Positions 5,034-14,544 of a stretch of 52,933 bases of DNA are shown here, piece after piece. The position numbers were made by a program, and so were the translations under genes. Within the stretch, counting starts at the first letter, position 1; each line of letters begins with the position of its first letter. This DNA comes from a virus (lineage: Duplodnaviria; Caudoviricetes): the IMG/VR virus record IMGVR_UViG_3300012920_000054, positions 1 through 52,933 of that record; one strand, given 5' to 3'. The notes under the pieces were generated by a model. That model was not told where the DNA came from and searched no databases. It worked only from the letters and a program-made list of their open reading frames with translations.

Positions 5034-5065
5034 GTTTTGGATATTATTGTGTACCATCTACACAC

Positions 5066-5073
5066 TATTTATC
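5066..5073 (-). promoter_or_regulatory. Late-type promoter motif GATAAATA (for tape measure gene)
   Basis: tatttatc on the plus strand, about 70 nt upstream of the TMP ATG at 4997. Confidence 0.6.
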
Positions 5074-5097
5074 CTTTTTATTAACAGGAGTTTTAAT

Positions 5098-5955
5098 ATG
5101 GCAAAAAGTAAAAGTAATCCATTAGCAGGTTTTTACCGTGCCCCTAAATTATACACGGCAATACCAACTGGTGGAAAATATTATGATGAGGACATCATAG
5201 ACTGGCCTGATACAAATGAATTGCCTATTTTTCCAATGACAGCAAAAGACGAAATGATCATGAAAAATCCAGACGCATTGCTTAACGGAGAAGCAGTTGC
5301 ACAGGTTATTAAAAGTTGTGTACCTTGCGTCAAAGATCCAAGAAAAATGGTTAGCAATGACGTAGACACATTATTAATTGCAATTAATGGTGCAACATAT
5401 GGCGATGAAGTAAATGTATCAGCAAAGTGTCCAGAGTGTGAAACAGACAATAGTGGCGCCGCAAGTGTGCAAACAAGTTTAGATAACATGGTTATGGTTA
5501 AGGACGACTATGAAGTAAACACTGATCAAGGATTAAAAATTACTGTTAAACCATTCCTATATGAAAGCACAATACAGGCAGGACTTGCCAACTTCAAAAC
5601 AACAAGAAGTTTACAGGCATTGCAAGAAGTAGAAGATGAGTTAGAGCAACTTAAAGCATTTAACGAAAACTTTATGAGTATTGCTGGTTTGAACTTTGAT
5701 TTGATCTGTAATAGTGTAAACAGTATTTCTGGCACTGACGCAGACGGTGAAGAGTTTATTGTTACTGATAACAAGAGTATCAGAGAGTTTATGGAAAACT
5801 GTGATGCCGCTATTGGTTCTGCAGTAGAAAAACGTATTGGCGATATCAATGAATTAGGTATCAGCAAAGACTATCAATTAGAGTGTGAGAACTGCGGTCA
5901 TGTATTTAAAACTACTATCGCATTTGATCCTGTAAATTTTTCCACGGCTTCTTAG
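5098..5955 (+). CDS. Baseplate hub assembly/tape-measure chaperone (T4 gp26-like), 285 aa
   Basis: Start revised to ATG 5098 (AGGAG at 5086-5090). Motifs PMTAKDEMIMKNPDALLNG and DVDTLLIAINGATYG, two CxxC pairs (CPEC, CENC), and a terminal FDPVNF. Confidence 0.85.
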   Translation: MAKSKSNPLAGFYRAPKLYTAIPTGGKYYDEDIIDWPDTNELPIFPMTAKDEMIMKNPDALLNGEAVAQVIKSCVPCVKDPRKMVSNDVDTLLIAINGATYGDEVNVSAKCPECETDNSGAASVQTSLDNMVMVKDDYEVNTDQGLKITVKPFLYESTIQAGLANFKTTRSLQALQEVEDELEQLKAFNENFMSIAGLNFDLICNSVNSISGTDADGEEFIVTDNKSIREFMENCDAAIGSAVEKRIGDINELGISKDYQLECENCGHVFKTTIAFDPVNFSTAS

Positions 5956-6176
5956 CAAAAGCAAAACCTGAGGCAGTACTGGAGTTAATTAACAGACTCC
6001 GCAAAGAAGCCGATACCTTAGAAAAGAGCCTTATAGAAATTGCTGTGTATAGTGGCGGAAGTATATCATGGCAAGATGCTCAACTTATGTCCATTAAAGA
6101 ACGTGAATTGACTGTTAAGGTAATCAACAAATATAATCAAATCAAAGCAGGTAAGACTGTAGGGGAAGAAATGTAA
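5940..6176 (+). CDS. gp51-like C-terminal extension (78 codons, -1 frame), probably translated by frameshift from the gp26-like gene
   Basis: Not in the ORF track. The open -1 frame reads FHGFLAKAKPEAVLELINRLRKEADTLEKSLIEIAVYSGGSISWQDAQLMSIKERELTVKVINKYNQIKAGKTVGEEM*. The SWQDAQLMSIKER segment resembles gp51/chaperone C-terminal motifs. No ATG until 6087; slippery AAATTTT at 5934-5940. Confidence 0.75.
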   Translation, partial: FHGFLAKAKPEAVLELINRLRKEADTLEKSLIEIAVYSGGSISWQDAQLMSIKERELTVKVINKYNQIKAGKTVGEEM

Positions 6177-6195
6177 GAGACACTTCGTGTCTTTT
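6175..6195 (+). terminator. Hairpin AGACAC-TTC-GTGTCT followed by T-run; probable terminator of the gp26/gp51 unit
   Basis: Perfect 6-bp stem 6178-6183/6187-6192 immediately after stop 6176, with a short T tract. Confidence 0.5.
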
Positions 6196-6245
6196 CAATC
6201 TACATTCATTCGTTCGTTTCACTCACTTCATTCACTTGATTGAAA
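6193..6245 (-). repeat. Imperfect hairpin with 8-bp outer stem, tandem sheared G-A pairs and GAA triloop
   Basis: TTTCAATC 6193-6200 pairs with GATTGAAA 6238-6245. The minus-strand interior is GTGAATGAAGTGAGT-GAA-ACGAACGAATGAAT. Confidence 0.65.
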
Positions 6246-6249
6246 CTTT

Positions 6250-6630
6250 TTATTAAGATAATCGATTTCATGCAGATTCCGAGGTCATATGAAGCCAACC
6301 AATAAGGCTTCATAAAAAAAGGACTTCATGCGAGTACACGTCGGCCATAAACGAAGACAGGTATTTTGTTTGCACTCTATTGGGCTCTGACCTTACCAAA
6401 CCTGCGTCGATTTTTAATCTCATCTCGCTTCACTTATGAGAATATAGAGTATAGCAATACTTTTCACAACTATTAAGACTTAGCAAATGTATCTCACCAG
6501 TGGGTGGACATTTAAGCATCCTTTCGGGTAGTGCTAAGAATCGCATAACAACCAATGCTCATGCTTACCATCACACGTCAGGATGGATTTCGCAACGGAA
6601 TCATAATTGGCCCGTCAACCGTATGTGTTG
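6250..6630 (-). ncRNA. Candidate large structured non-coding RNA of unknown family
   Basis: Lies in a 566-nt ORF-free gap in an otherwise fully coding genome, directly downstream of the GIY-YIG gene. About ten identifiable stems, a GAAA tetraloop and a pseudoknot; G-U pairs and the GNRA loop favour the minus strand. Boundaries approximate. Confidence 0.6.
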
Positions 6631-6742
6631 TTTGTATGTGTTTTAAGAGTTAGACTTTGTGTCTGTGAGTGCCATGTTTGTATTCAGTAGATACTTATAT
6701 ACACCGATATTAGTGTATAAATTTTTTTGAGTAAAAATGCTC

Positions 6743-7171
6743 TTAAGAGCCTTTAAGGTGTTCCTTAAGAATTTGAGAGCCACCTATACGAACATTGATT
6801 ATGCCGTTGTAGTAGTCATCACTGAGTAACACTTCTCTGTCGAATTGTTCCTTGGCTTCTAAATAACTTGATATGCCCCTGCTAGGACAAAAGTGAAGAA
6901 TTTCTCTGATAAAATTCTCCTCGCCATATTTTTCTACATCTTCTTTGAGATGATCTGAACTTCCCCAATATGTTTTCCAATCGCTTTCTTTGTAACCACG
7001 ACGTTTGTTCTTTTTGCCTTTCAAGGGAGGTTTGGTTGTTTTGAACTTGGCTAGTTTTTTACCAACATACTTCATGCCGTTCTTTTTGTTTGTGATTAGA
7101 TACACAAATGCTTCACAGTCTTCTGGTAATGTGTCTATAATTGCTTTTTCGTATAACCAAGGACTACGCAT
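6743..7171 (-). CDS. Small GIY-YIG endonuclease (catalytic domain only)
   Basis: AFVYLITNKKNGMKYVGKK (GIY...YIG equivalent), YWGSS, conserved Glu in YLEAKEQ and Asn in YYNG. Start overlaps the gp46 stop (TAATG). Confidence 0.85.
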   Translation of the reverse strand: MRSPWLYEKAIIDTLPEDCEAFVYLITNKKNGMKYVGKKLAKFKTTKPPLKGKKNKRRGYKESDWKTYWGSSDHLKEDVEKYGEENFIREILHFCPSRGISSYLEAKEQFDREVLLSDDYYNGIINVRIGGSQILKEHLKGS

Positions 7172-8937
7172 TATGAAATGTACTCTGTATCAGTATTATA
7201 TGCTGTAAAGCCGCCTTCTTTTACAACTGTTAATACATTATTTACACGACCTACAAGTTCTTCTTTATGTGATATAAGCAAAATGTTTTTAGAATGTTCT
7301 CTATTCATTTTCTTGAGTATTGCTAATGCGTTTTCAACACCAGTAGTATCCATACCACTGTCTATAAGTTCATCAACACACATCAAGTTCATAGGATGAT
7401 TGAGACTTTCAAATATGTCTCTGAATGCCCAACTTAGTCCTAGTATAAGTCTATTACGTTCTCCTCTACTTAAATTATCAAAGTCTAAGTCTCTGCCATA
7501 CTCTGTGATCTCTACTCCTAAGTCACTAGCAAATTTTACATCATGCGGCAAACCTAACTTGTCTAAGTAGTGTGCAAGTCTGTGATTTAGATATGCAATA
7601 TTTTGATCAATAATACGTTTACGGATAAAACTGTCTTTGCTTGTTAGAAGTTTGTATAAAAACTCTTGGTGTTCTTTTAGGTGTGTTACTTCGTTAATAA
7701 TTTCAAAGTCAATTTCTTGTATACCTGTTTCACGCAGATTTTCAACTTGTTCATCATATGGATTTATTTCTTCTGCTTTTTCTTCAAGTTGTTTTTCTAA
7801 TGTGTCTAAGTTGTGTTTGTGTTCTAATGCATTTTCTAATGTTTCGTAAAATGTATCTTGTAATTCTGGAAGTACACCTAACTCTTCTAATGCATTGTCA
7901 AGTTCTTGTATACGTTCCTCAAGTCCTTCTCTGTATTTTACTTCTTCTGTGTACTTGTCTTCGAGATCCTTAGTATATTCCTCATGTGTGTCTAAGTGTG
8001 CTGTACTTTGTTCACAAGCAGGACACACACCTTCTTTTGCTTTTTGTATATTGTTCTCTAGTTCTGCTAATTTAGAAATACTTCTATTCAACGAAGTTGT
8101 AGTAGTTGTTTGTTCTTTTTCGATAGTGTTTATAGCAGTTTTTTGCTCACTAACATCTGCATTACTTTTATGTGCGGAAATTTCTTGCTCAATATCTATC
8201 TCCATAAGTGTACTAATGGATGTAGCCATATCTTCAAGTTTTTCAGAATGTGTTTTTGCCCATGCCTTGCTTCTGCTAGTAATCTCACTAATATTTTTTT
8301 CAATACGTTTGTTACTAGCCTCTATGGCATTTATTTTAATTTCTTCTTCTTTGATTCTATCCCTGCTGTCTTTCATAAGTTCTTTGAGAACTTCTGCTTT
8401 TTCGGATAGTTCTGTTATGCCTAACAGTTGTTCAATCATGTCACGTTGATCATTAGGCTTCATACCTAAGAAAGGTTCTGTGTATGTGTTTAGTGCAATC
8501 AAATGCTTAAACATTAGATGAGGGAAACCAATAATTTTCTCAATATCTTTTTGTGTTTCTCTACTGTCGCCTTGTTGTTCTTGATCTCCTGGCTCTACAC
8601 CGTCAATATACAGTTTGAGAATGTTAGGACGTCTGCCTCTTTCTATTCTGTATTCAGTGCCATCAATTTCGAAGTCAACTGTAACAATCATTGACTTACC
8701 ATTTGTTTTGTTGATGAGGTTATCACGCCTAATGTTTGTTAGTGCTTCTCCGTATAGTGCATAACTTAGTGCATTGATAATAGTAGTTTTACCTGTACCA
8801 TTCCTACTTCCATCTCCGCCCATGTCTAGATTGTGCCCTAGTACCAATGTTAAATTAACATTGTCAAAATTTACTGCCTGAGTTTGAGCACCAACACTCA
8901 TAAAATTCTTAGCAGATACGTTTTTGATCTTCAACAT
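7171..8937 (-). CDS. Recombination exonuclease ATPase subunit (T4 gp46 / Rad50-SbcC-like)
   Basis: Walker A NGTGKTT, coiled coils, Zn-hook CPAC, signature LSRGE, Walker B CVDELID and H-loop ISH. Confidence 0.95.
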   Translation of the reverse strand: MLKIKNVSAKNFMSVGAQTQAVNFDNVNLTLVLGHNLDMGGDGSRNGTGKTTIINALSYALYGEALTNIRRDNLINKTNGKSMIVTVDFEIDGTEYRIERGRRPNILKLYIDGVEPGDQEQQGDSRETQKDIEKIIGFPHLMFKHLIALNTYTEPFLGMKPNDQRDMIEQLLGITELSEKAEVLKELMKDSRDRIKEEEIKINAIEASNKRIEKNISEITSRSKAWAKTHSEKLEDMATSISTLMEIDIEQEISAHKSNADVSEQKTAINTIEKEQTTTTTSLNRSISKLAELENNIQKAKEGVCPACEQSTAHLDTHEEYTKDLEDKYTEEVKYREGLEERIQELDNALEELGVLPELQDTFYETLENALEHKHNLDTLEKQLEEKAEEINPYDEQVENLRETGIQEIDFEIINEVTHLKEHQEFLYKLLTSKDSFIRKRIIDQNIAYLNHRLAHYLDKLGLPHDVKFASDLGVEITEYGRDLDFDNLSRGERNRLILGLSWAFRDIFESLNHPMNLMCVDELIDSGMDTTGVENALAILKKMNREHSKNILLISHKEELVGRVNNVLTVVKEGGFTAYNTDTEYIS

Positions 8938-8939
8938 AA

Positions 8940-9956
8940 TTAAATTTCTATTCCGTTATAGATGTCGATAAGTCTTTGTTTATCAATAGTTTTAGAGTCA
9001 ATAGTTTCTAATTGTGTGATAACAATCTTATCCACACTTTCAAATTCAATCTCGCCACCTTCGTAGGCTTCCTCTTCTTCCTTGATTGGTATAAGTTGTA
9101 ATTCTCGTACATTATATTGCTCTGCCATCTTTTCTCTTATAAAGTTTGCCTCTTCATAAGATATACTGATGTCAAGTTTTACTCTTGCATAAGTGTACTC
9201 GTCTAATAGTGTTTCGTGATTGTCTAGCAGATCTTTTAATGTAAAAGATTTGTACTTAGGACATTCTGCCCAGTTTACATACACTGGCTCCTTGTCCCAT
9301 TCTAAGAACATTGCACCTCTGTCAGTATCGCCAACGTCTGCGTAATTGTGTGGGAAAGCATTACCTATATAGTGTATGTTGTTTTTGTATTGACGTTTGT
9401 GGAAGTGTCCACTAAACACATATTCAGGACCTGATAAGTCCTCTGCTTTAAGTCCACCGTGGTCGGGCATATCTACTAGGGCGTTCATTTTGAAGTACGG
9501 CAACTCTAGGTGCCCAAAGAAATATTTGGCTGTACATTTGGAAAGTGTTTTCCATTCGTCGCCAACCAACCACGGGGAAATTGCTACATCACCTTGCTCA
9601 AATGGTTCATCAACCATTACAAAGTTCGATAAGTCTCTTGCGTATTCGATGCTGTTTAGATCACGTTTGTCTCTGTAGTACAAATCATGATTACCTGTAA
9701 TAAAGTATACCTTTTCAAAAGCATCATTTAGTTTTTTTAAGTCTTTGATTGTTGCGTTCATAGTAGCAATATTAATACTTGCTCTATGATGATGCCAATC
9801 ACCTAGAAATATACATGTCTCACAATCTCTTGCTTTAGACTCTTCGATAAACCAATCTACAAATCTAGCACAATCGTCGAGATGTAATCTACTATTTTGC
9901 TTTAGGCCGTAGTGAATATCCGTGAAACACGCGGCATGTTTAAAAAGTTGTGACAT
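8940..9956 (-). CDS. Recombination exonuclease nuclease subunit (T4 gp47 / Mre11-SbcD-like)
   Basis: Metallophosphoesterase motifs TDIH, GDWHH, GNHD, GHLE and GHFH; adjacent to gp46. Confidence 0.95.
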   Translation of the reverse strand: MSQLFKHAACFTDIHYGLKQNSRLHLDDCARFVDWFIEESKARDCETCIFLGDWHHHRASINIATMNATIKDLKKLNDAFEKVYFITGNHDLYYRDKRDLNSIEYARDLSNFVMVDEPFEQGDVAISPWLVGDEWKTLSKCTAKYFFGHLELPYFKMNALVDMPDHGGLKAEDLSGPEYVFSGHFHKRQYKNNIHYIGNAFPHNYADVGDTDRGAMFLEWDKEPVYVNWAECPKYKSFTLKDLLDNHETLLDEYTYARVKLDISISYEEANFIREKMAEQYNVRELQLIPIKEEEEAYEGGEIEFESVDKIVITQLETIDSKTIDKQRLIDIYNGIEI

Positions 9957-9959
9957 AAA

Positions 9960-10832
9960 TTAATCAAAGGCTCCTTCATCGCTTTTCCCTGATTCCATTG
10001 ATTCCCGCAGAATTCTCATTTCGTCTTCGTGTTTAATCTGTCTGCTGTAACTTGGTAAGTGCCCTTGATCTATTAGAATATCATCTCTGATACTTTGATT
10101 ACGTTTTTCAAGATTTAGTACTCTTGTAAAACTATTAATAACTGCCGCTGTATAGTATGCAAAAGGATTATCACTTTTTGCTTCGTTAAACTGTAAGCCT
10201 ACTTGGCTAAGTTGAACTAATGCTTGTCCACGCATTTCATCTACATAAGTGTAACCACGCCAGTTTGCTCTGTGGCTAAATCTTTCAACAAGTTTTAAGA
10301 ACATAGTTCCAAGTTTGTTAGTGATTCTTCCTACAGACGGACTAAATTTTCCGTTGCTTAGGCTACCTTCCCAATGACTTCTTGCAACTTCTTTAAGTTC
10401 TCCATTTTGAAATGCATAATGCTTGAAAGGTGGAAAATTAACTTTTGCCTTTGTTTCTGCTTCATTTCTAGGATTCTTTTTTCTGCCAGGCTCTAATGGA
10501 ATGTGTTCCATTGTCATGACTCTAAAAGTTACATCTTCGTCTGAAATAGTAGCAATATCTACAGCAAACTCTTTTTGCTTTGGCTTGTTTCTGTAGTCGC
10601 CACTACCATGCTGTATCATTGCTTCAGCATAGGCTTCGCTTTGAATTCTTGATGCTTGGTTTTCTTTTGCTTGTTTAATTGCTGTTTTATTAATCTTCTT
10701 AACGTCATCTACAATAACGTCATGCTGGAAATATTTCTCGTCCGATAGCCAACAAAAACTCATCTTGCTTTTGTGAATCTCTTTCAAGATGTCCTTATTA
10801 TTAAGGTAATTTACCTTCTTAGGTTGTGCCAT
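9960..10832 (-). CDS. Late transcription sigma factor (T4 gp55-like)
   Basis: N-terminal NYLNNKD, then NWRGYTYVDEM and NPFAYYT motifs typical of gp55. Canonical gp55-gp47-gp46 order. Confidence 0.88.
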   Translation of the reverse strand: MAQPKKVNYLNNKDILKEIHKSKMSFCWLSDEKYFQHDVIVDDVKKINKTAIKQAKENQASRIQSEAYAEAMIQHGSGDYRNKPKQKEFAVDIATISDEDVTFRVMTMEHIPLEPGRKKNPRNEAETKAKVNFPPFKHYAFQNGELKEVARSHWEGSLSNGKFSPSVGRITNKLGTMFLKLVERFSHRANWRGYTYVDEMRGQALVQLSQVGLQFNEAKSDNPFAYYTAAVINSFTRVLNLEKRNQSIRDDILIDQGHLPSYSRQIKHEDEMRILRESMESGKSDEGAFD

Positions 10833-12180: not shown

Positions 12181-14544
12181 ATGGCAAACAGCAATATACC
12201 TCAAATAGATGATCCATACGTAGGCAAAGTTTACGGAAACATTCTCGACAGATATGCATTACCAACTTATAATGTAAAGTTGTACATGCTCAGAAAAGAA
12301 CTTTCTGTTGACGCCAAAGACGGTGTTGCTTCTTTTGATGAATCCTTAACAGGACCTCCACAAGATCAAGTTATACTAGCACAAACAGGTGTAACTGCCG
12401 CATCTATAGATGATATAAGTATACAGGCACTAACTGCCACTGACGGACCAAATGCAATACAAGTCGACTTTACTGTACATCAACCTGGTGCCGCTACATT
12501 TTTAGATCAGATGCAAATGGCAAGAGCATTTCTTGGCCAAGAAAATGATTACATGCCTGTAGTATTTTTAGAAATACGATTCCAGGGCTATGAAGCAGGG
12601 TATGAACCAGACGAAGATGACGGCGGCGAATTTGCACAAATTTGCGGACCTTATAGATGGAAACTTAACATAACAGAAATAAATGTAGAAATAGATGAGG
12701 GCGGAAGTAGATACGATATCAAAGCAATACCAACAAAAAGTTTTGCTTATAGCAGTCCTCTGTTTAAAATACCAGCAAATATAAGTACAGCAGGCAAGAC
12801 AATCACAGAGCATGTTAATAGTTTACAAGAACAACTAAACACTTATCACAAAGAAACTGCTACGCATGAAGTCCCAGATGAATTTGAATTTGACTTAGAA
12901 GCATTACTTGGTACTGAAACTGATGCTAACTCTGATGGTACTGCTAAACAAAATAGAATAAATGATGAGACATTAATTACTAGTGCAGATGCAGAAGCAG
13001 ATGAACGTAACAGACTTTTGAGAACTTACGAAATAGGAGATGCTGTTACCGCCAAGCAGGCGTTAGTCGATGAGCCAAAAGTAGAAGGCGAAGAACCAGA
13101 ACAAATATTTGAAGAAGACAAAATTAATGTTCCTAAAGACATGACCATTGAAAAATACTTTGCAACGTTGCTTAGTATGAACCAAGAATTTTACGATAAG
13201 ATTAGTAGGAAAGAACAAATAGATGATGCAGAGTCTGATGCTAACACTTCAGAAGCACATGTTATATGGTTTAAAATGGATGCAAATGTCACACAATTAA
13301 AGTTTGATAAATCTAGAAACTCATATGCACATAAGGTAATATACAAACCAAGACTGTATAGAAGTTCAAGGCCTGATATTGTAATTGACTCAAAGGAAAT
13401 AGAAGTATCCAAAGAAGATTATAAAAACAGAGCAGAAGAAATTTTTGCAACAGGCGGTTTGAAAAAAGCATATCATTACATATTCTCTGGACTTAATGAT
13501 CAAATAAAAAGTTTAGATATAAAATACAATAACGGTATTGCATTATTAGTTCCACCAAAGGGAGGTGCTATTGGACAAGCCGCACTAGTGTTGGCAGAAA
13601 AAGCCGGTTCTATTCCTGCAGGAGAAGATACTACATTAGAAGGTGTTGTTGAAAACTTAATTGAAGCAAAAGGAAATGCAACAGCAAAAGATATCTTCAA
13701 AGATTTTATGGATGGCATTAATAAATTAAAAGACATAGCAGAAGATGGATTATCAGGATTGGTGCAACAATTAGAAGATGCAACGGGTCTTGATGTTGAA
13801 ACTATTACTGGTGCATTGCAAGGAAATAACGAAGCAAATCAACAAGCATTAGAAAATGCATTAGATTCAAAAGCACTTAAAAAACTTAATAACGAAACAC
13901 AAATTACTGCCACAGAACCATTCCCAGAATACAATCCTGAACTCAGTGATTATAATTATGCTGTTGATTTAGTCAACCCATTGGAAACACCTCTTACAGC
14001 AAATGACTTAGAAGAATTAGGCTATCTAACACTTGAGAGAGTAGAAGAAGCAACAGTAATAAAACAAAAACTTGATTCAACAGAAAATGTAAATGATCCT
14101 GAAAGCCAAGCCGCCACAATTAAAAAAGGTAGTGTACAAAATACATTGTTTGGTGTGATTGCAAGTCAGCATTCAAATGATTTAGCATTCTTAATACAAC
14201 TAGACATGGAACTTAGAGGTGATCCTTGGTATTTGGGTAAAGATACAAATGATAATTCTGACGAGGAACAAGCAAATTTTTACAAAGATGATAATCACTT
14301 CTATTTAGGAATACGTTCTCCAAAGACATTCGATATGGACTGGCGAGATGAGGACAGTGATATAAATACTGGTTATTGGAAAGGAGACGGAGTCTCTAGA
14401 TCGTTCGGTGGAATATACAGATTGGTTAGTGTGACAAATAATTTTTCTAATGGTGAATACTCTGTAAGTGTAAATGCACAAAGAGTTGTACCAACACAAG
14501 AATCAAAAATAGAGAACACTAATAAAGAGGAACCAGCACCATAA
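12181..14544 (+). CDS. Probable baseplate hub protein (gp27-like)
   Basis: 787 aa between the gp53-like and gp5-like genes; C-terminal ELRGDPWYL and GIYRLVSVTNNFSNGEY motifs. Confidence 0.6.
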   Translation: MANSNIPQIDDPYVGKVYGNILDRYALPTYNVKLYMLRKELSVDAKDGVASFDESLTGPPQDQVILAQTGVTAASIDDISIQALTATDGPNAIQVDFTVHQPGAATFLDQMQMARAFLGQENDYMPVVFLEIRFQGYEAGYEPDEDDGGEFAQICGPYRWKLNITEINVEIDEGGSRYDIKAIPTKSFAYSSPLFKIPANISTAGKTITEHVNSLQEQLNTYHKETATHEVPDEFEFDLEALLGTETDANSDGTAKQNRINDETLITSADAEADERNRLLRTYEIGDAVTAKQALVDEPKVEGEEPEQIFEEDKINVPKDMTIEKYFATLLSMNQEFYDKISRKEQIDDAESDANTSEAHVIWFKMDANVTQLKFDKSRNSYAHKVIYKPRLYRSSRPDIVIDSKEIEVSKEDYKNRAEEIFATGGLKKAYHYIFSGLNDQIKSLDIKYNNGIALLVPPKGGAIGQAALVLAEKAGSIPAGEDTTLEGVVENLIEAKGNATAKDIFKDFMDGINKLKDIAEDGLSGLVQQLEDATGLDVETITGALQGNNEANQQALENALDSKALKKLNNETQITATEPFPEYNPELSDYNYAVDLVNPLETPLTANDLEELGYLTLERVEEATVIKQKLDSTENVNDPESQAATIKKGSVQNTLFGVIASQHSNDLAFLIQLDMELRGDPWYLGKDTNDNSDEEQANFYKDDNHFYLGIRSPKTFDMDWRDEDSDINTGYWKGDGVSRSFGGIYRLVSVTNNFSNGEYSVSVNAQRVVPTQESKIENTNKEEPAP

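Follow-up and report, generated by a model that had tools for sequence, protein, structure and literature searches.

A stand-alone SegE-type GIY-YIG nuclease and the conserved noncoding tail of its gene in an uncultured T4-like phage

The IMG/VR phage sequence IMGVR_UViG_3300012920_000054 (Caudoviricetes) was analyzed over its whole length of 52,933 nucleotides (nt), in the following called the window. Between a gp46-like and a gp26-like gene its minus strand contains an open reading frame (ORF) of 142 amino acids (aa) for a GIY-YIG nuclease, which is followed by a long conserved noncoding tail. The protein is an ordinary member of a known and very large Pfam family, and its sequence and modelled structure indicate that it is almost certainly an active single-domain GIY-YIG nuclease. 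Across its family the nuclease is independent of the RNA of the tail. The reading that we prefer, with a probability of about 0.5, is that of an RNA-independent, stand-alone SegE-type DNA endonuclease, which would feed the gp46/47 exonuclease and would be analogous to endonuclease II (EndoII) of phage T4. The gene and the segment that encodes its basic insert are located as follows.

6743..7171, minus strand: nuclease ORF with ATG start, 142 aa; stand-alone SegE-type GIY-YIG protein
6986..7051, minus strand: segment of the nuclease gene for the Lys/Arg-rich insert (residues 41-62), a beta-hairpin in the model with strands at residues 42-47 and 57-62

Family, fold and conserved residues of the nuclease

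A prediction made earlier from the sequence alone (the original prediction) had given the protein a length of 142 aa, and this agrees with the ATG-initiated ORF. Pfam assigned residues 5-125 to the family PF19835 (SegE_GIY-YIG) with an E value of 4.6e-33 and 114.5 bits at a cut-off of 25; the match extends over profile positions 1-123 of 123. The generic GIY-YIG model of Pfam stayed below its own cut-off on this protein, and a second domain was not found in the Pfam search. The nuclease also matched PHROG 447 (phrog_447, 148 positions, E 1.8e-36), and all weaker matches to PHROGs, NCBIfam and PADLOC were homing or group I intron endonucleases. PHROG 447 and hundreds of phage records label the family as 'NAD synthetase'. 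Because fold and motifs are those of a nuclease, this label looks like a propagated annotation error.

Searches for relatives demonstrated the size of the family. With an E limit of 0.001, a word-indexed search yielded at least 6038 clusters, of which the best 120 span 138-164 aa. Exhaustive comparison with representatives at 50% identity returned 2201 sequences under this limit, 1042 of them with E values of 1e-10 or less; the best 150 of the 2201 are mostly 130-160 aa long. Longer fused relatives accounted for only 2 of 140 candidates in the word search, which we rate as weak evidence. The nearest models in BFVD are phage proteins named 'SegE-like GIY-YIG domain' with 131-159 aa, and this database also holds Seg-like proteins of 271-357 aa with a template modelling (TM) score of 0.74-0.77 to the nuclease model.

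An alignment of 57 diverse relatives, which are 38-61% identical to the window nuclease, revealed the invariant residues W5, F22, Y24, Y35, G37, W65, Y68, S71, Y103, E105 and N122. The GIY motif corresponds to F22-V23-Y24 and the YIG motif to Y35-V36-G37, with Y24, Y35 and G37 being invariant. The metal-binding glutamate E105 and the C-terminal asparagine N122 align with a SegE stretch that ends in YYN. Counting the variable columns of the nuclease ORF by codon phase gave 64/43/127, a strong third-position bias that indicates purifying selection.

The AlphaFold2 model calculated from the 57-sequence alignment reached a mean predicted local distance difference test score (pLDDT) of 94.8 and a predicted TM score (pTM) of 0.87. 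Using this model, Foldseek placed the catalytic domain of I-TevI first among the PDB entries (probability 0.99). In a Foldseek-independent structure search of 48,161 chains the top four matches were all GIY-YIG nucleases, in agreement with the three-stranded sheet and helices that define the fold of this superfamily. I-TevI was again the best match (Z 8.5, root mean square deviation 2.7 A over 82 residues), and the further matches were PD-T4-3 (Z 7.1), the N-domain of UvrC (Z 5.7), T4 EndoII (Z 5.4) and Slx1 (Z 3.1-3.2). Sequence searches of the PDB, with the single protein as well as with the 57-sequence profile, gave no meaningful match; only TRF1 and HSP90 appeared at chance level (E of at least 0.07). 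The family match, the fold, the invariant residues and the codon-phase pattern therefore identify a real single-domain GIY-YIG nuclease.

The closest characterized relative by sequence is the free-standing homing enzyme SegE of T4 (205 aa). Both proteins share a homologous core with an hhalign probability of 97.9% and 38% identity over 82 columns (SegE residues 2-83). SegE is devoid of the basic hairpin and of the N-terminal extension, and its approximately 120 extra C-terminal residues have no counterpart in the window protein. Together with the single Pfam domain, this confirmed the absence of a C-terminal DNA-binding domain noted in the original prediction. The description of the protein as essentially just a catalytic domain was correct in that no DNA-binding domain is appended; it did not take into account an N-terminal extension of about 20 residues, which forms two short strands in the AlphaFold2 model and lies outside both the catalytic core and the insert.

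A group I intron remnant holding the nuclease ORF was considered because I-TevI is intron-encoded, and Rfam found none. A split host gene as required for an intron was also ruled out, as gp46 is intact and the next gene downstream runs in the convergent direction.

The Lys/Arg-rich insert is a hallmark of the family

The basic stretch was present exactly as quoted in the original prediction (residues 42-61, KFKTTKPPLKGKKNKRRGYK), and it is a true insertion relative to T4 SegE: in the hhalign as well as in the MAFFT alignment about 20 residues are absent from SegE. Between residues 40 and 60 the window nuclease contains nine lysines or arginines and no aspartate or glutamate. The hairpin is inserted behind the YIG strand, and its block was modelled by AlphaFold2 with a pLDDT of 95-96. 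All 57 diverse relatives contain the insert, with a length of 18-27 residues and on average 8.6 lysines or arginines and 0.16 aspartates or glutamates. Its consensus in these sequences is LKGxKxK, and the segment is part of the PF19835 model. The insert is thus a hallmark of the family and no peculiarity of the window gene. A near-identical basic hairpin is found in relatives without the noncoding tail, including Methylophilales phage Melnitz and the IMG/VR loci L032, L045 and L047; a manual count from the alignment gave five differences between Melnitz and the window within residues 40-62.

Two precedents suggest a function for this hairpin. According to excerpts of a study on T4 EndoII, DNA binding by this enzyme needs its N-terminal and middle regions and is weakened by the exchanges K12A and K76A (PMC2764454). 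For GIY-YIG restriction enzymes, insertions and terminal extensions in place of extra domains are described in excerpts of PMC1564403. In the light of these precedents DNA binding is the economical reading of the basic hairpin, and by analogy hairpin and N-terminal extension may together form a nucleic-acid-binding surface.

The noncoding tail contains conserved structured elements

The original prediction had placed a structured RNA candidate 3' of the nuclease gene, and a conserved noncoding element is indeed located there. Three conserved blocks recur in it.

6177..6742, minus strand: noncoding tail (class I) of 566 nt, candidate RNA of about 0.5 kilobases (kb); no ORF above 48 aa
6646..6677, minus strand: block B1, ACAGACAC[C/A]AAGTC with GGCAC before it; found with nhmmer in 32 loci
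6245..6442, minus strand: block B2, core at 6323-6410 and a 3' hairpin (ATGAAGCC / GGCTTCAT in the window); 78 distinct sequences
6178..6247, minus strand: block B3, stem of 7 base pairs (bp) and terminator-like hairpin; 63 distinct sequences

The tail is 95% and 92% identical to those of the two closest relatives; the corresponding values for the flanks are 85% and 83% for gp46, 85% and 82% for the nuclease gene and 78% for gp26.

In block B3 a stem of 7 bp (6238-6244 with 6194-6200) encloses a purine-rich loop of 37 nt, and a terminator-like hairpin follows at 6178-6192. A consensus scan likewise reported a terminator-like site on the minus strand at 6192-6178. The 13 pairs of the block were kept in 97.4% of 814 cells; the value for shuffles was 77.5%, and with slid partners it fell to 29-44%. 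Changes on both sides occur in 12 of the 13 pairs, and the observed score was reached by none of 500 shuffles. The hairpins near 6177-6250, to which the original prediction had drawn attention, are therefore real and conserved, with covariation across 63 distinct relatives. The hairpins also contain 14 G-U cells, which favors an RNA of the sense (minus) strand over a DNA cruciform.

In a pattern scan, viral contigs contained at least 120 stretches that fit block B2, and 37 columns are invariant across the 78 distinct sequences. RNAalifold predicted 12 pairs, two of them with a compensatory change, and the 3' hairpin shows compensatory pair types. An all-against-all analysis of column covariation was too noisy on this block, as one divergent sub-clade differs at many columns together. 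Our structural claims for B2 are limited to the P1 stem and the 3' hairpin.

Block B1 is present in one to three tandem copies and begins 20-40 nt past the nuclease stop in most relatives (for example L033:3435-3507). It could mark the 5' end of an RNA, a processing site or a protein-binding site. The window contains a perfect 7-bp hairpin (TATACAC ... GTGTATA, 6698-6719 on the minus strand, 24-45 nt past the nuclease stop), which is an insertion relative to most relatives.

A second class of tails (class II) with a length of about 480 nt shares B1 and B3 and is devoid of B2. The variable columns of class II tails are distributed over the three phases as 95/101/93; this flat pattern shows no codon periodicity and rules out a hidden small protein gene in tails of this class. 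Class II tails always follow the nuclease gene and share its orientation. Between loci with the gene after gp46 (type A) and loci with the gene inverted (type C) they are 83-87% identical over about 480 nt, so that gene and tail behave as one unit through the inversion.

Rfam contained no match at E up to 1 for positions 5900-7300, and three rows at chance level (E 2.8-9.5 at a limit of 10) for positions 6150-6760. Folding of the whole tail as a single sequence was not distinctive, with z values of -0.89 for the minus and -1.98 for the plus strand. In four RNA-library runs from three studies, contigs aligned to positions 6173-6685, and the nuclease ORF, gp46 and gp26 were not covered. These contigs are short and of low depth, and they had been filtered by a 31-mer index and 88% identity. 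Only the tail is conserved enough to pass this filter, and the uncovered genes are therefore no sign of absent transcripts. The contigs are compatible with a transcript of the tail and prove little. A consensus scan detected no convincing sigma-70-like promoter just upstream of the tail. The consensus of T4 late promoters, which we take to be TATAAATA, occurs once in the window (14361-14368) at 6.6 occurrences expected from shuffles, and this phage probably has late promoters unlike those of T4. The post-stop motif CTATATATTG was not enriched in the window (113 occurrences, 100 expected). The tail of about 565 nt is a candidate for a new large structured phage RNA without an Rfam family.

The nuclease family occurs mostly without the tail RNA

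The association between gene and RNA was analyzed in those 74 closest relatives for which the downstream sequence was long enough. Only 17 of them contain B2 and 25 contain B3. In type D loci a coding ORF begins already 14-35 nt past the nuclease stop. In the opposite direction the association holds: among 80 examined loci with an exact B2 (of at least 120), the nuclease gene lies upstream on the same strand in 76, at a distance of 141-581 nt, and the other four have at most 228 nt of upstream sequence. Since all B2 loci belong to one syntenic clade, this linkage mainly reflects shared ancestry and does not count as independent evidence.

For a maximum-likelihood tree of the 57 nuclease proteins the tails were labelled as class I, class II or none. 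These labels need 11 changes on the tree at a minimum of 2, with at least 5 for class I as judged by well-supported branches. The two proteins nearest to that of the window (support 100/98 and 100/96) carry class II tails, and the window carries class I. The tail class is thus discordant with the protein tree, which argues that the protein does not co-diversify with the RNA.

The proposal of an RNA-dependent nuclease that acts as a ribonucleoprotein (RNP) with the adjacent RNA is not supported by these data. The co-occurrence check named in the original prediction was carried out, and whereas B2 predicts the gene, the gene does not predict the RNA: homologues occur mostly without it, which is one of the refuting outcomes listed in the original prediction, relatives without a tail keep the basic hairpin, and the tail class changed repeatedly on the protein tree.

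Gene neighborhood and distribution

The nuclease gene and its tail occupy the slot between gp46 and gp26. The neighboring features are the following.

7171..8937, minus strand: gp46-like Rad50/SbcC subunit, 588 aa (PF13476, E 1.9e-15; phrog_77, SbcC-like, E 1.1e-100)
8940..9956, minus strand: gp47-like Mre11/SbcD subunit, a metallophosphatase, upstream in the gene string of the nuclease (PF00149 Metallophos, E 3e-07)
9960..10832, minus strand: ORF upstream of the gp47-like gene, no Pfam family matched; presumably gp55, a label assumed from gene order alone
6045..6176, plus strand: convergent ORF of 43 aa ending at the B3 hairpin; relatives found with tblastn in 10 of 80 loci
5047..5955, plus strand: gp26-like baseplate hub gene, the far flank of the slot (PF12322, E 2.4e-15; phrog_150)

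Base 7171 is common to the ATG of the nuclease and the TAA stop of the gp46-like gene, and the minus strand reads CATAATG at this position. The TAATG overlap with gp46 and, with it, the description of the nuclease gene as translationally coupled to gp46 were thereby borne out. No tRNA or tmRNA was detected in the window. Among cultured phages, the best matches of the gp46-like protein come from the Pseudomonas jumbo phage PA5oct and related phages (53% identity), and the best match of the nuclease is phage Melnitz (71% identity); the window therefore originates from an uncultured lineage with mixed affinities.

A tblastn search found the nuclease in 790 phage records, in 427 of them with at least 80% of the protein covered. 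About 400 of the records are cyanophages (339 Synechococcus phages, 46 named 'Cyanophage' and 22 Prochlorococcus phages), and the others include Felixounavirus-type coliphages and phages of Salmonella, Sinorhizobium, Flavobacterium, Roseobacter and further hosts. Excerpts of PMC3037559 mention an 'endonuclease' in 15 of 16 cyanomyoviruses, which may or may not be this gene cluster. In annotated genomes the gene is located after nrdB (Melnitz), by endolysin genes (S-SRM01), beside two homing endonuclease genes (phiN3) or after talC (P-RSM4). In these four genomes the next gene follows 28-148 nt past the nuclease.

The 80 closest IMG/VR loci are 69-92% identical to the window nuclease, and 57 of them also contain gp46. 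As a test set based on gp46 we used the 49 loci with a gp46 relative and at least 1800 nt of sequence after it. All 49 contain the nuclease gene, 33 on the same strand as gp46 (27 of these directly abutting it) and 16 in inverted orientation. An empty site was not found; the ten gp46 loci without the gene have at most 1239 nt of downstream sequence. The inverted unit of nuclease and tail between gp46 and gp26 occurs in L240, L253, L030, L012 and 12 further loci, and in these loci gp46 and the B3 hairpin are separated by an additional convergent ORF (about 106-117 aa).

In 14 close loci neither gp46 nor gp26 is nearby, and in 12 of these the gene for the small chain of ribonucleotide reductase is located just upstream of the nuclease. 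The loci in which the nuclease follows nrdB are L026, L032, L035, L036, L039, L043, L045, L050, L057, L064, L068 and L077, and in addition L001. In T4 the EndoII gene denA sits directly after nrdB. DenA itself was undetectable by sequence in Melnitz, P-RSM4, S-SRM01 and phiN3; in a control Melnitz and P-RSM4 were re-run alongside T4, which was detected with an E value of 3.7e-95.

Proposed function and alternative explanations

For the stand-alone endonuclease we infer DNA as the substrate, a low sequence specificity and a hand-off to gp46/47. The enzyme would hold DNA with its own hairpin and N-terminal extension, and with one active site per subunit it would nick the DNA or, as an oligomer, cut it, in both cases with low sequence specificity. 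In this phage its gene belongs to one gene string with those of gp47 and gp46. The Mre11-Rad50-type exonuclease gp46/47 would most likely process the nicks or breaks that the enzyme introduces into host DNA or recombination substrates. The recurrence of gp46/47 and ribonucleotide reductase as neighbors points to a function within the DNA-breakdown and nucleotide-supply part of the infection program.

EndoII is likewise a small stand-alone GIY-YIG enzyme, and it is encoded right after nrdB as are close relatives of the window protein. EndoII forms tetramers and prefers DNA with unmodified cytosine, and in the breakdown of host DNA by T4 it acts ahead of gp46/47, which then digest the fragments. 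The T4 record describes it as 'initiating degradation of cytosine-containing DNA'. According to excerpts of PMC2764454, EndoII contacts DNA through additional N-terminal and middle regions; the layout of the window protein is similar, but the structural match reached only Z 5.4.

Several points weigh against this assignment. A sequence relation to EndoII is undetectable (hhalign probability 0.7%), and the nearest relatives by sequence as well as by structure are the homing enzymes SegE (probability 97.9%) and I-TevI. In 16 of the 49 loci the gene is inverted behind the baseplate gene string, and coupling to gp46/47 is therefore not universal. To our knowledge, there is no known means by which these phages could spare their own DNA from a nuclease of low specificity. 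Finally, the core arginine of the GIY-YIG fold could not be placed with certainty from the alignments; it would be R57 or R58 and thus part of the basic stretch. Positions 56-58, at which this arginine is expected behind the YIG strand, are rich in lysine and arginine; R57 is at least 90% conserved in an 11-sequence alignment and unflagged in the 57-sequence one.

The strongest competing explanation, which we regard as unlikely, is a free-standing Seg-like homing endonuclease, active or decaying, that spreads by cutting genomes without the gene; its variable location and orientation would then reflect mobility. The closest characterized relatives are homing enzymes (SegE with an hhalign E value of 6.4e-13 and, by structure, I-TevI), and so are the secondary matches to PHROGs, PADLOC and NCBIfam, together with group I intron endonucleases. 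The location of the gene differs between phage groups (nrdB, endolysin genes, the homing genes of phiN3, talC), both orientations occur within the one slot between gp46 and gp26, and nrd genes are known hot spots, with mobE and I-TevIII located there in T4. In some loci the nuclease is 88-90% identical to that of the window and gp46 just 73%. However, a homing enzyme should possess a DNA-binding domain for site specificity, and this domain is missing; the few longer relatives speak in the same direction, if weakly. The gene is also fixed in the clade, and empty sites were not found among the 49 loci. Its length is constant, the third-position bias is strong, and there is no gradient of identity decaying away from the gene as expected for co-conversion.

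It appears improbable that the protein is a structure-specific nuclease related in function to Slx1 or UvrC, which during recombination-dependent replication nicks DNA with branches, flaps or hairpins alongside gp46/47 and which could have the adjacent conserved hairpins among its substrates. Its position as operon partner of gp47 and gp46 in the window and next to gp46 in 27 of 49 loci, the presence of UvrC and Slx1 among the structural matches and the conserved hairpin with a 7-bp stem about 500 nt downstream are consistent with this function. On the other hand, the structural matches to Slx1 are weak, close relatives beside nrdB are without the hairpin tail, and the 14 G-U cells favor a sense-strand RNA over a DNA cruciform.

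Very improbable, finally, is an RNA-partnered nuclease, either as an RNP or under RNA control, whose basic hairpin binds the tail RNA or which cleaves RNA; the same holds for a module restricted to the clade, in which the nuclease gene is joined to an RNA of about 0.5 kb that recruits, regulates or is processed by the enzyme. Gene and tail do remain joined, with unchanged orientation to each other, where the unit is flipped between gp46 and gp26, B2 loci nearly always have the gene upstream on the same strand, and the tail is under constraint at the nucleotide level with covarying helices; yet the family is far wider than the RNA, only minorities of the close relatives carry B2 or B3, relatives without a tail keep the same hairpin sequence, the nearest proteins have the other tail class, and the B2 loci form a single clade whose counts are not independent. 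We know of no RNA-guided or RNA-cleaving GIY-YIG enzyme.

Comparison with known GIY-YIG proteins

The window protein shares length, N-terminal extension, basic hairpin and invariant residues with the stand-alone SegE-like proteins of phages (PF19835, PHROG 447, T4-like gene cluster 213 in cyanomyoviruses), and nothing essential distinguishes it from them. What differs from the annotated copies in cyanophages, Melnitz and the Sinorhizobium phage is the context: the window gene is located after gp46 and is followed by a long conserved noncoding tail which these copies lack.

The catalytic domain of I-TevI (PDB 1LN0, 1MK0) is the best structural match and shows only a weak relation by sequence (hhalign 9.8%). 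I-TevI is intron-encoded and its catalytic domain is tethered to a DNA-binding region with a zinc finger and a helix-turn-helix. The EndoII structure used for comparison was PDB 2WSH. The GIY-YIG restriction endonucleases Eco29kI and Hpy188I resemble the window protein in consisting of a single nuclease domain enlarged by insertions or extensions, as described in excerpts of PMC1564403. These two enzymes and PD-T4-3, the second-best structural match, are bacterial defense enzymes with defined short sites or with specificity for modified bases; unlike the restriction enzymes, the window nuclease has no methyltransferase partner.

Significance

In marine and enteric phages few small nuclease families are as widespread as this one, which comprises thousands of clusters, and our literature search found no characterized member of it. 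Dependence on an RNA would have been remarkable and is not supported. If an RNA-partnered module nevertheless existed in this uncultured marine T4-like clade, it would contain the first GIY-YIG nuclease with an RNA partner; a more cautious version takes the tail alone as a candidate for a new class of large phage noncoding RNA. The conserved structured noncoding element of about 0.5 kb is worth a separate study. Should the nuclease take the place of EndoII in function, the start of host-DNA breakdown for nucleotide supply in T4-like phages without denA would have an explanation.

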